A stretch of DNA of 63,622 nt, filler included, from Reclinomonas americana ATCC 50394 (taxonomy: Eukaryota), in the NCBI GenBank assembly GCA_048213135.1. It is 8 parts of 8 records of this genome, joined end to end, with 100 filler letters (N's around TTAATTAATTAA, not from the genome) between each part and the next. Parts side by side here need not be neighbours in the genome. Positions count along the whole stretch, not along the records: positions 18,809 to 30,655 come from AFZH01022034.1; positions 30,756 to 51,016 come from AFZH01022035.1; positions 51,117 to 60,761 come from AFZH01022036.1; 5 more parts are not named here. One strand, written 5' to 3'. The stretch's first letter is position 1; each line of letters starts with the position of its first letter. Made by a program: the position numbers and the translations under genes. The notes below the pieces were generated by a model. That model had not been told where the DNA came from. It saw only the letters and a program-made list of their open reading frames with translations, and ran no database searches. Below are positions 25,522 through 56,976 of the stretch, in pieces.

Positions 25522-25832
25522 TTAGAGCCCCAAGCTGAAGCCGAACGAGGGCGCGTTCACCGCCTCGCCCTTCTGGCCCACGGGTCCAGACTCAGATGCC
25601 GACTCGACTGTGAGAAGCGAGGAGTGAGCACAAAAAGAGTGGAAAATCAAGCACAACAGTCGACGAGCTCACCCTCGTTGTCCATGCCCAACACAGTGCT
25701 GTTGTTGCACAGTTCGTTGGTGAGTAATCACTTTGTGTGTGTGTGTGTGAGAAGAGAGAGAGAGAGAGTGTGCACTCACGTCTCTGTGTGTGCCTCCGAG
25801 GTGCCCTGCTCAGTCGATGATGCGCTGCCCAT
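25522..25832 (-). CDS. Novel microprotein family member B, 54 aa: MGSASSTEQGTSEAHTETTVLGMDNEVESASESGPVGQKGEAVNAPSFGFSLGL
   Basis: Exons 25832-25780, 25698-25673 and 25607-25522 (165 nt, GT-AG). 44 of 54 residues are identical to member A. Confidence 0.87.
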
Positions 25833-26144
25833 TTTTCTGCACACAAATGGTGAGATGGCGCATGGCGAGAATGGCAATGCAACGCAACGCAACGCACCTT
25901 TGCTCAGTTGATTGCGATGCGAGACTGACTGAGAAAGTTCTCGCACAAAGAGTCCCGCGAAGTCGTACGTTGAAAGTCGGTTTCCTTGTTGCTTTACATT
26001 ATCAATCGCGACTGTCTACTTCGAGCGGGGAACCACCAAGCATTCACTCTCACCAATGAGGGACTCACTTCGCCTTCGTCGGCGCGTTTTGTTAATAGGA
26101 CCCGCCAAATCCTGTCACTCGTAGATCTGACGACTGCATTTCAC

Positions 26145-27524
26145 ATGGCCACTCTTCGCGGCCACCTCATTGGCTCCTTCCCCGAGCACCCTCTGTGGGT
26201 CTCCGATGTGGCCATCTGTGCACACTCCACGCCGCCTCTCGTGGCCACCACATGCGACGATGGCGTTGTGCGCGTATTCAATGCCCAAAGCACTGCGCTC
26301 GTGCACGCCCTCAAAGCCGTGAACGAGCAAGGCGAGGTGTGGCGCTGTGCGTTTGCGCCACCGCCTGTTGTCACACTGGTGACTGCGGGAGGCGAGAATA
26401 GCGATTACGAGGTGATGTGTTGGCAGCCGGAGACTGGTGTGCGCCAGTGGTGCGGCTCGGAACACAATGATTCGATTCGGTGCCTGGCATTCACGCACAA
26501 TGGGCTGTATGTTTTCACCGGTGGCAACGATCGCACCGTTGTGCAATGGACGGTGGGCACGGGCGAGCACCAGTCTGCCTTTGTCAGTCACCGACACGAC
26601 GTGTGCGGCATGGCGGTGTCGCAGGATGATCGGCTGCTGGTGACTGGGTGTGCCGATTGCGTGGTGCGCGTGTTCGATCTGGCGAGCAGACGGTGTGTGC
26701 GACAGTTTGAGGTGCCGAGCATGGTGTGGGATGTGCAGCTGGTTCGTGGCGACACGGCGGTGGTGACCAGTCATCAGACCGACCCGGAGTTGCGCTTGTG
26801 GTCGGTGGCCACGGGTGAGCAGGTCGGCGCGGGCTGGAAGGGTCATACCGATCGGAATGCGTTCAATCTGGACGTGTCGGCCGACGGCCGGTACTTGCTG
26901 AGTGGCTCCCTGGGTGAGTGGTCTGCCTGCGAGTGACCATATGCATGACGATGATAGTGCTGATTGTAGTGGTGTCCATGGTGCAGATAAGACAGCGCGC
27001 ATGTGGAACATCCGCACCGGCCAGACGGTGGCGGTGCTGGCCGGTGGACACTCGGATGGAGTCTGGACGGCCAGGTTCTTGCCTGACGGCCGTGTGGTGA
27101 CGGTGTCGCGCGACGCCAAGGTGCTCCTGTGGGATTGCGGTGAGTGTGCATGTGCGTGGCATGTCCGTGCGCTGATGTCGACTCAACTGTCTCGCCGTGT
27201 GTTTCAGTGCGCGAGGATCAGATGGTGGAGCGAGAATGGATGGCAGCTGTGCAGGCGGTGGATGCGCTGTCGGTCGACTGTGCGGACGGGGAGGTGGAAT
27301 CATCCCCCGAAGAACAAGGGGACGAGGAGGAGGGTTCTCGGGGTACTGCCGCAACGGATGCAGGCGAAGGGGAGGAAGCTGAAGTGGAGGAGGCGGAGAC
27401 GGAGGAGGAAGAAGAAGCAGAGGCACTCCCAAGGCTAGTCCTACGTTGCTTCCTCGCAGAGGACGCTCGCCTGCGCCTGCTGCGCATGCTGTGGGCGCGG
27501 GAAGACGAGGAGGCAGAGTCATGA
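26145..27524 (+). CDS. WD40-repeat protein with conserved C-terminal 'LPxLxLRCFL' module (WD-A), 3 exons
   Basis: WD repeats 'EHNDSIRCLAF..TGGNDRTVVQW', 'SHRHDV..LRLW', 'GHTD..SGSL|DKTARMW', 'GHSDGVW..VLLWD'. Last exon 'EREWMAAVQAVDAL...LPRLVLRCFLAEDARLRLLR'. Confidence 0.9.
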
Positions 27525-27548
27525 TTACGAATTGTACACTACCCTCAT

Positions 27549-53976: not shown

Positions 53977-54155
53977 TTGTCAGTGAAGTGCAATTTCTCG
54001 GAACATTGTCTTGGTGGAAGCGTAAAGGCGCCAACGAGGTGTCGTTATCTTGTGTTTGTGGCTGTGGTAGATACCATGCCGAGACTCGATTATAATGATG
54101 GAGTGGAGTGGGACGTGGAGGGACTTGGCTCATTTCATCCGTTTATTGGATTGCG

Positions 54156-55477
54156 ATGAGCACTCCTCCTCCTCGCTGCCTGCGCTCATTCACCAGCCGC
54201 GACTTTGTCAAGTCGCACGCCTACCGCGTCTCTGTCTCGCGTCGTGTCCCGTGGGAACGAGGCGCACGCGGGTCCGTGCAACTGCTGGCGGTACCGTCGT
54301 GTGATCGCACAGTGAGAGTGTTTGAGGCGGGTGAATTGTCGCAAGTGTGCACGGTGGAGGTGGGGAATGCGGCATGGCGGTGTGTGTTCTCGCCTACAGT
54401 GGCCACTCAGCTGGTGGTGGCGGAGGGCAGCATGTATGGAAAGAGTATAACATTGCGCTTGTTCGATCTCCAGTGTGACGCGAAGAGTGTGACTCCGCAG
54501 CTGTTGTGGGTGAGTGACAGTTTCGAGGATGGCGTGCTTGGTCTGGCGTGGTCGCATCGCGGCGACTTGGTGTATGCGTGCTCGCACGACAAGACACTGC
54601 GTGTGGTGAATGCGGAGACGGGTCAGACAGTGCGCGTGTTTGCCGATCAAGTCGAGTGTGCACACGAGTTGCGACTGTCGCCCTCTGGCAACGTGCTGAT
54701 GGCTACCTACCGCAAAGGGACGCGCATCGCGTGGGACCTGGTACGCAGGATTCCGCTGTGGAAGCATCCGCCTCCCGAACTCGCGTCTGTTCACCATCGA
54801 CCGAGTTCACTGATCACCAGCGATGGCCAGCACGTCGTCTGCGCGATGCTCGACAACGTGCCTCGGTTGTGCAGTCTGCGGACAGGCAAGCCAGTGCGCG
54901 AGGCGATGCCCGAGTTGGGAGAGGTCACGACGTTTTTCACCTCGCCTGGAATCTCATACGTGGTGGCTCAAGTACGTTGCGGTTGCGTTACTGACGACAG
55001 TGCACACACACGCAGTCTCTTCACATGCTAGTGCTGACACTCTTTTGCTGCCGCACAGATTTGCTGGTGTTCCGAGTGAGAAACACCGAGTTCGAGTTGG
55101 TAAACACATTGCGCGACGTCTTGCTCCCGGAACAGACGTATGTCGATGTAGCCATTCTCGACACGGGAGCTATTGTGGTGCTTCATGGCGGCAAGCATGG
55201 TTCTCTGCAAGTGTGGGATGCAGGTGCGTGTCGCTTCAGAAAATGAGAGAGGGAAGGCAACTCAGTCGGGGATGCATACTGCGTAGGACTACTTGGTCAC
55301 TTGTTGCGAGATGAAGTGCGAGCAGCCTGTGATGCCGTCGAAGCACTGGGAGAAGTGGAGGCTGCGATGGAGGGCGACGACGGTGAACCGTTGCCGAAAC
55401 TCGTACTGCGTTGTTTCCTAGTGGAGGAAGCACGGTTGCAGCTGTGGCGCTGGTCACAGAGTCTCGATTGTCAGTGA
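54156..55477 (+). CDS. Tandem paralog WD-B2
   Basis: Same exon structure and motifs as WD-B1, intact ORF ending 'LPKLVLRCFLVEEARLQLWRWSQSLDCQ*'. Confidence 0.85.
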
Positions 55478-55626
55478 AGTGCAATTTCTCGGAACATTGT
55501 CTTGGTGGAAGCGCAAGGGCGCCAACGAAGTGTCGTTGGTGCATGCCATGACGACAGGAACGACTGAGGAACAGTGGGACGCGGAGGACTTTGTTGGCTC
55601 ATTAACCACACATTTGTTCGCTTGCG

Positions 55627-56976
55627 ATGAGCACTCCTCCTCACTGCCTGCGCTCACTCACCAGCCCCGACTTTGTCAAGTCGCATGCGTACCGCGTTTC
55701 TGCCTCGCGTCGTGTCCCTTGGCCACCCGGCAGCGCGCACGGGGGAAGATCGACGCAACTGTTGGCGGTGCCTTTCTATAGACGCTCAGTGAGAGTGTTT
55801 GAGGCGGACACGTTGTCGCTTGTGTGCACTGCGTTGGTGGAGAATGCGGCGTGGCGATGCCTGTTCTCGCCTACTATCCCCACGCAACTGCTGGTGGCAG
55901 AGGGCAATGCTAACGGATCGAGCATTGCCCTGCGCTTGTTTGATCTCCAGATGACGCCGTCATCGTCTGACGCGGAGAGTGTGACTCCGCAGCTGATGTG
56001 GGTGAGTGAGAGATTCGGAGACGGCGTGCTCGGTCTGGCGTGGTCGCATCGCAGCGACTTGGTGTATGCGTGCTCGCACGACAGAACGCTACGTGTGGTG
56101 AATGCGGAGACGGGTCAGACGGTGCGCGTGATTCACGGGCAGCCCGAGTGTGCGCACGAGCTGCACCCGTCGCTCTCAGGGAAGGTGGTGGTGGCCTCCT
56201 ATCTCAGAGGAGCGCGGATCGCCTGGGCTGTGGAGCGCGGTGTTGCGCTTTGGAAGCATCCGTCTCTGAACCACCGATCAAGCTCATTCATCACCAGCGA
56301 TGACTGCCACGTGGTCTGCACGAGGCCGGAAAGTGTGCCACAGCTGTGCGACCTGTGGACGGGCGAGCCGATGCGCGAGGCGATGCCCGAGTTGGGTGAG
56401 GCCACGAAGTTTTTCAGCTCGCCTGCTGGAGCGTATGTGGTGGCGCAAGTAAACCGCGGTTGCGTCAGCGATCCCTGTTTTGCAACTTGTGGTCGATGCT
56501 TACGCACTGTTGACATGGCCACGCAGACTTGCGAGTGTTTCGAGTGAGAAATACCGAGTTCGAGTTGGTGGCCACGCTCTACGATGTCTTGTTCGAAGTA
56601 AATTCATCTGTCGATGTTACGTTTCTCGACACTGGAGCGATTGTCGTGCTCCACAGTGGCGATCGAGGACTTTTGCAAGTGTGGGACGCAGGTGCGTACT
56701 AGGTGGGAGACGGTGAGAAAGATAGAGAAGGAGAATTCTAGAAGACAAGGATACTCATCGTTGGAGGTTCACACAGGTCTGCTGCCCGAGGCAGGTCATT
56801 TGTTGCGAGATGAAGTACGAGCAGCCTGTGATGCCGTCGATGCACTGGGAGAAGTGGAAGCAGCAATGGAAGACGACGACGGCGAGCCGCTGCCGAAACT
56901 TGTTATGCGTTGTTTCCTGGTGGAGGAAGCGCAGCTGCAGCTGTTGCGCTGGTCACAGAGTCTCAAATATCAGTGA
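55627..56976 (+). CDS. Tandem paralog WD-B3
   Basis: Same exon structure, ending 'LPKLVMRCFLVEEAQLQLLRWSQSLKYQ*'. Confidence 0.85.

Follow-up and report, generated by a model that had tools for sequence, protein, structure and literature searches.

Two head-to-head microprotein and WD40 gene pairs in Reclinomonas americana, possibly derived from one old block duplication

The beta-gamma dimer of heterotrimeric G proteins is formed by a WD40 propeller and a small lipid-anchored partner, and the F-box/WD40 and WD40/SOCS-box proteins are WD40 substrate receptors provided with a small helical box. Genes that recall these systems are described here in a window of Reclinomonas americana ATCC 50394 (the whole stretch of DNA analysed, 63,622 bases), to which all family counts refer: four WD40 genes (WD-A, WD-B1, WD-B2 and WD-B3) and four genes of acidic microproteins (mA, mB, mC and mD). 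At locus 1 the ATG of mB (25832, minus strand) faces that of WD-A (26145, plus strand) with 312 bases between them, and at locus 2 the ATG of mD (52606, minus strand) faces that of WD-B1 (52677, plus strand) with 70 bases between them, as a previous inspection (the sequence-only reading) had indicated. The second microprotein gene that it placed near each locus could also be modelled, mA at locus 1 and mC at locus 2.

Two kinds of gene pairs are among the closest to this arrangement. Bidirectional pairs are defined, in the part of the source used here, by transcription start sites on opposite strands and no more than 1000 bp apart (PMC2648788). The pairs of R. americana are similar to them in lying on opposite strands with ATGs 70 and 312 bp apart, within 1000 bp, the limit concerning transcription start sites and the distances here ATGs only; as in bidirectional pairs multiplied by segmental duplication, two paralogous copies are present with the same orientation. 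They differ in that the two families are almost orphan and only half of the observed members are paired. In fungal HET-S/NWD2 a WD-repeat gene likewise stands beside a small effector-like gene, an adjacency found twice in this window (PMC3321046; PMC4344463, both drawn on in part). The defining features of the fungal system, in the section of the first of these papers that was available, are a STAND/NLR receptor with an NTPase (NACHT), a receptor motif homologous to the prion-forming motif of the effector, and a HeLo-type effector in which the motif is repeated (PMC3321046). A further trait of the fungal pairs is that the neighbouring genes stay paired across species.

Origin of the repeated arrangement

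The repeat is read here, with a confidence a little above even, as the product of a single old segmental duplication, in which a two-gene block was copied and its genes then duplicated locally, and not as an independently recurring cassette. In a tblastx comparison of all pieces of the window against each other, paralogy between the contigs of the two loci was limited to the microprotein and WD40 families. In both pairs the microprotein gene is on the minus strand and the WD40 gene on the plus strand, the highest inter-locus identity among microproteins is that of mB and mD (63%), and a derived Gly-rich tail is common to mC and mD. The ancestral block would have comprised a WD40 gene on the plus strand and, facing it head-to-head on the minus strand, the gene of a small acidic protein. 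After duplication of the block, the microprotein gene would have been duplicated within each locus, in direct orientation in mA/mB and inverted in mC/mD, and the WD-B gene would have been triplicated in tandem along with its own short promoter. WD-B2 and WD-B3 keep the upstream element of WD-B1 with no adjoining microprotein gene, which points to duplication without the partner.

One old block duplication with later local duplications would account for these observations, and the gene trees agree with it; the recurrence is therefore taken as n = 1. The sequence-only reading had proposed a recurrent cassette; the simplest reading is instead the "one old local duplication" that it had set against its own proposal. 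Its view that the linkage is old and not the result of a fresh duplication is borne out by the proportion of synonymous differences (pS) between microprotein paralogues, 0.49-0.65 and near saturation, and by a synonymous divergence (dS) of about 1.6 between WD-A and WD-B. An origin of the two loci as haplotigs or assembly duplicates was considered and dropped in view of an identity of only about 25% between WD-A and WD-B.

The tandem duplication unit of WD-B is marked, in the sequence comparison, by an upstream element and a conserved stretch past the stop codon. The element, GGACG[TC]G..GGAC, is located about 35-55 bp before the ATG of WD-B1, WD-B2 and WD-B3 (within 52607-52676, 53977-54155 and 55478-55626, respectively), and the first 70 bp or so past the stop are conserved between WD-B1 and WD-B2.

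Several points weigh against a single duplication. Only two loci are available, and with two a block duplication is not separable from selection for linkage. The head-to-head placement has been kept in both old copies, at 312 and 70 bp, despite the drift of WD-A and WD-B to about 25% identity, and this could reflect constraint. The microproteins (53-81% identical) and the C-terminal module of the WD proteins (47%) are far better conserved than the propellers (down to 22%), as would fit mutual interaction. The splice models, the promoters and transcription are all predicted from sequence, the microprotein trees, with an alignment of 53 residues, lack robustness, and the data cover the window, so that further pairs elsewhere in the genome would favour a functional cassette.

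The retained spacing and the uneven conservation are also what could be expected of a true two-component module held together by selection, in which the partners would be co-expressed from a bidirectional promoter and bind each other. The microprotein, myristoylated, would be a membrane anchor or a ligand; alternatively, the WD40 protein would be its receptor or chaperone. mB would be cognate to WD-A, and mD (with mC) to WD-B, and the conserved strand-like motif with its terminal Leu at the C-terminus of the microproteins could dock on the propeller. Such a module is considered rather unlikely. The head-to-head arrangement is found only in mB/WD-A and mD/WD-B1, that is in 2 of the 4 genes of each family, and the duplications that gave WD-B2 and WD-B3 included their own promoter but no microprotein gene. 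Moreover, retained head-to-head spacing needs no shared function, because a break within a short spacer would hardly spare either promoter, and spacers of 70-312 bp are ordinary here because the genome is very compact: the tandem WD-B genes are separated by 149 and 179 bp, the stop codons of mC and mD lie 195 bp apart, and mB is 46 bp away from a convergent open reading frame (ORF) of 84 amino acids.

Since the genes of each pair have a common spacer of 70-312 bp, one bidirectional promoter region may drive each of them, a proposal for which the chances are judged to be even. A bacterial promoter/terminator scan of the spacer was uninformative, the DNA being eukaryotic.

The window comprises eight contig pieces joined by linkers of one composition (Table 1). 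Piece 5 (18809-30655) holds locus 1, and piece 7 (51117-60761) holds locus 2. Distances across linkers are not genomic, because the window is made of joined contig pieces; the separation of about 27 kb reported earlier for the loci holds in coordinates, and is at best a scaffold distance, the linkers 30656-30755 and 51017-51116 lying in between. The flanks of both junctions give a hint, from sequence, that the order of the pieces is the true one: between pieces 6 and 7, (GA)n flanks the linker 51017-51116 on both sides, and between pieces 5 and 6 each flank carries a plus strand ORF, the one on the right stopping after 54 codons.

The WD40 and microprotein families and their neighbours

The eight predicted gene models were read from the sequence and then checked by script; all have GT-AG introns and are in frame. 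Their introns are of 63-85 nt, with the exception of one of 268 nt in mC. The DNA has the character of a eukaryote, with a content of G plus C of 0.51-0.62 and numerous short GT-AG introns. Conservation at the sequence level indicates that all eight genes are real and protein-coding, and both families look to be under purifying selection: the ratio of nonsynonymous to synonymous divergence (dN/dS) among WD-B1 to WD-B3 is 0.31-0.42, and the in-frame microproteins remain 53-81% identical despite synonymous sites near saturation, so the earlier claim of two real and conserved families is sustained. An unusual 5' splice site, GTTGCG, is present in the predicted intron 1 of WD-B1, WD-B2 and WD-B3 (53494-53560, 54982-55058 and 56459-56526) and in the intron of mC (51676-51943).

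WD-A matches PF00400 with 81.7 bits in exon 1 (four stretches) and 29.7 bits in exon 2, the cut-off being 27, and its phmmer matches in PDB are generic WD40 proteins. The WD-B copies are degenerate: exon 1 of WD-B2 is just above the cut-off (29.0 bits), those of WD-B1 (22.4) and WD-B3 (20.6) being below. The fold of WD-B1 was modelled for exon 1 alone, with six of the presumed seven blades; the predicted structure is an all-beta propeller (predicted local distance difference test, pLDDT, 75.3; predicted template modelling score, pTM, 0.77) and its top Foldseek matches in PDB are the WD40 propellers ODA16 and WDR5 (E about 1e-12). The start of WD-B1 was set at 52677 because the frames of WD-B2 and WD-B3 open at the homologous Met; in-frame ATGs are also found further 5', from 52530. 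In protein database searches exon 1 of WD-B1 gave 945 candidates with none at E <= 0.001, and exon 1 of WD-A gave 499 candidates with none at a strict E <= 1e-20, at which weaker generic WD40 relatives are possible.

Identity is 24-26% between WD-A and the WD-B copies and 71-77% among the latter (WD-B1 with WD-B2, 71%; with WD-B3, 77%). The four genes share the motif WRC[AVL]F and two phase 1 introns at matching sites, the first splitting the codon of the Asp with which the last blade begins and the second splitting the codon just after the final W-D-x. Thus WD-A and WD-B are, as was noted before, strongly diverged yet joined by a WRCAF-type motif, a last-exon module and the intron that precedes it. 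This last exon is the best kept part between WD-A and WD-B, with 47% identity versus 22% in exon 1 and 30% in exon 2. It carries LRCFL in three of the four genes (MRCFL in WD-B3), and in WD-B1 its predicted fold comprises two helices, at residues 5-30 and 38-62 (pLDDT 73.7).

The C-terminal exons matched no Pfam family at E <= 1, F-box and SOCS-box included, and the module gave no PDB profile match at E <= 10, no Foldseek match at E <= 0.001 and no usable match in the ESM Atlas. An exhaustive HMMER search with it among 1.84 billion representatives returned two matches. The first, a repeat-rich, retroelement-like protein of 800 amino acids, is regarded as spurious. The second, P0002, is an environmental ORF fragment of 57 amino acids on a 618-bp contig without context; it is 40-44% identical and, by sequence, the only outside relative of the module found. 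The module is therefore present in at least one other, unsampled organism. On these and the following searches both families are almost orphan.

The four microproteins align without gaps over 53 residues. All start with M-G-S-x-x-S, which fits MGXXXS/T, given in the consulted part of the source as the usual N-myristoylation consensus (PMC4736023). They are acidic (7-9 D+E versus 0-2 K+R), rich in Ser/Thr and Gly, and have in common, towards the C-terminus, the motif N-[AT]-P-[SG]-F and, after it, a stretch of alternating F/L; mC and mD carry in addition a Gly-rich tail, which mA and mB lack. The microprotein exons matched no Pfam family at E <= 10, their alignment gave 246 candidates and no match in the protein database search, and exon 2 of mC had no usable match in the ESM Atlas. 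No internal repeat was found in the alignment. An apparent fifth copy, a tblastx match at 21362-21463, was on inspection placed outside the family. The ending of mD is, by eye, a CaaX-like Cys-x-x-Leu (52320-52334, minus strand), probably without meaning because mA, mB and mC lack a Cys at this place.

The absence of homologues in the protein databases searched, the very short exons and the need in one model for a GTTGCG donor and a 268-nt intron could suggest that the microprotein ORFs are not genes at all, and that next to the real WD40 genes there are only ORFs that arose by chance or non-coding elements that are conserved. This is held to be very improbable in view of how the copies differ. 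Four of them keep the MGS start, the 53-residue frame and the stop. mA and mB are 81% identical (43 of 53 residues), 21 of these 43 residues being encoded by different codons, and their nucleotide identity is 67%; many of the substitutions are synonymous, switches of Ser codon class among them. The similarity of their flanks (0.61 and 0.57) shows no excess over shuffled controls (mean 0.58, maximum 0.63), flanks and introns being unrelated between copies.

The same protein is, in addition, restored by predicted splicing at different positions. The introns are located at codons 4 (phase 1), 13 (phase 0) and 47 (phase 0) in mA; 18 (phase 2) and 27 (phase 1) in mB; 19 (phase 2) in mC; and 26 (phase 0) in mD, with no position common to any of the paralogues. 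Two pairs of sites are only 1 or 3 nt apart, and the intron sequences are mutually dissimilar. The discordance suggests intron gain, loss or sliding. Introner-like repeats were considered and rejected: blastn of introns against introns gave only simple-repeat matches and the orthologous introns of WD-B1 and WD-B3.

The neighbouring genes with Pfam matches are included in Table 1. The 84-amino acid ORF (25221-25475, plus strand) has a hydrophobic N-terminal stretch, an acidic/Lys-rich tail, a stop 46 bp from that of mB and no Pfam family; just upstream of it a 30-bp unit is repeated in tandem about 7.5 times (24938-25155). Candidates picked by eye are presumably a NOG1-like GTPase (around 5.7-8.8 kb), an acyl-CoA synthetase-like gene (around 41.5-43 kb) and a CNOT9/Rcd1-like gene (around 61-62.5 kb). 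A glycosyltransferase guessed by eye for the ORF ending at 27549 had no Pfam support and was discarded.

Table 1. Coordinates and main characters of the features in the window (gene models are predicted)
Feature	Coordinates	Strand	Characters
mA	22696-23070	-	4 exons, 54 aa; GT-AG introns of 73, 69 and 68 nt; C-terminal NAPSFGFSLGL; outside the span 25522-56976
mB	25522-25832	-	3 exons, 54 aa; head-to-head with WD-A
mB/WD-A divergent spacer	25833-26144		312 bp; only a short GGAC-containing patch is like the mD/WD-B1 spacer
WD-A	26145-26913, 26987-27139, 27208-27524	+	3 exons, 412 aa; canonical WD40 propeller, acidic linker, LPRLVLRCFL helix
mC	51620-52124	+	2 exons, 78 aa; Gly-rich C-terminal extension; 268-nt intron with GTTGCG donor; tail-to-tail with mD
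mD	52320-52606	-	2 exons, 73 aa; head-to-head with WD-B1
mD/WD-B1 spacer	52607-52676		70 bp; holds the GGACG..GGAC element
WD-B1	52677-53493, 53561-53719, 53783-53976	+	3 exons, 389 aa; degenerate propeller and C-terminal two-helix module
WD-B2	54156-54981, 55059-55223, 55287-55477	+	393 aa; tandem copy without a microprotein partner upstream
WD-B3	55627-56458, 56527-56691, 56777-56976	+	398 aa; tandem copy without a microprotein partner upstream
HAUS2-like (weak)	23882-24409	-	Pfam 24.8 bits, below cut-off
Protein kinase domain	57980-58732	-	Pfam 153.8 bits
Ras-family GTPase, split over exons	59720-60761	+	Pfam
Linkers	2772-2871, 11621-11720, 14662-14761, 18709-18808, 30656-30755, 51017-51116, 60762-60861		44 N + TTAATTAATTAA + 44 N

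Possible functional pairing and its comparison with known systems

The WD proteins may be seven-bladed propeller adaptors whose most conserved part would be the C-terminal two-helix module, for docking or oligomerisation. The microproteins may be N-myristoylated, acidic and mostly disordered peptides ending in a conserved beta-strand of alternating F/L and a terminal Leu. That the two families work together is doubtful. If they do, the likeliest logic would be that of G-gamma and G-beta, with a lipid-anchored small subunit or ligand that tethers or regulates the propeller protein, and not that of an amyloid relay. In a complex prediction the three exons of WD-B1, as separate chains, and exon 2 of mD obtained a score of 0.00; with exon pieces this is no evidence either way. 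Related loci were found neither in metagenome contigs nor in prokaryotic genome contigs (0 in each).

The likeness to G-beta-gamma lies in a presumably seven-bladed WD40 protein accompanied by a protein of about 55-78 amino acids with a lipidation signal. The differences are several: the putative lipid signal is of the N-terminal myristoylation type, not a C-terminal CaaX; there is no G-gamma (GGL) domain among the Pfam matches of the microprotein exons; the WD40_Gbeta Pfam model scores 57.6 bits on WD-A, with a cut-off of 150; and the predicted helix of the WD proteins is C-terminal and not N-terminal. The F-box/WD40 and WD40/SOCS-box receptors are similar in that a propeller is joined to a short helical box rich in Leu and Cys, LPxLxLRCFL resembling by eye the beginning of an F-box or BC-box. 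They differ in that the box is here C-terminal, with only some 27-33 residues after LP, and has no F-box or SOCS-box Pfam match, no PDB sequence match and no fold match at E <= 0.001.

The sequence-only reading had suggested a propeller that nucleates a beta-polymer, by analogy with nwd2/het-s. A HET-s/NWD2-like amyloid signalling pair, in which the membrane-targeted microprotein would form a beta-polymer with the WD40 protein as its nucleator, would agree with a WD-repeat gene adjoining a small protein gene, with the 8-residue stretch of alternating hydrophobic and polar residues near the C-terminus of the microproteins and with their N-terminus of membrane-targeting type. It is nevertheless thought extremely improbable, and the analogy was abandoned. 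The Pfam matches of the WD exons include no NACHT/STAND or other NTPase family, in agreement with the remark, made along with the suggestion, that no NTPase domain was visible. In a blastp comparison of the four microproteins with the four WD proteins no common motif appeared, the lowest E-value, 0.1, being that of an acidic low-complexity match. The microproteins (54-78 amino acids) lack a HeLo-type or other Pfam domain as well as a duplicated motif of about 21 residues and, apart from the one short F/L stretch, are strongly acidic and rich in Ser/Thr/Gly. In contrast to the fungal system, the loci of R. americana are thus without STAND NTPase, common amyloid motif and HeLo domain, and their pairing is known from this window alone.

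The most novel form of cooperation would be an obligate two-subunit membrane adaptor evolved within the lineage. An N-myristoylated acidic microprotein of 54-78 amino acids would dock through its conserved C-terminal strand on the propeller or the conserved two-helix module of an orphan WD40 protein; the divergent pair would be served by one promoter, and the cognate sets would be mA and mB with WD-A, and mC and mD with WD-B1 to WD-B3. This form is judged improbable.

As it stands, the main value of the two loci is cautionary: in a compact genome a repeated arrangement of neighbours can be a single duplication counted twice. By-products are a clear instance of nearly identical paralogues whose introns lie at different positions, and an orphan C-terminal WD40 module for which a single environmental relative was found. 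A functional pairing, if there is one, would add a new case in which a propeller protein is served by a lipid-anchored microprotein, and would also show that multi-exon microprotein genes, missed by gene callers, can be found from paralogue conservation alone. If the obligate two-subunit adaptor were true, a logic like that of G-beta-gamma would have been invented independently in an undersampled eukaryotic lineage.

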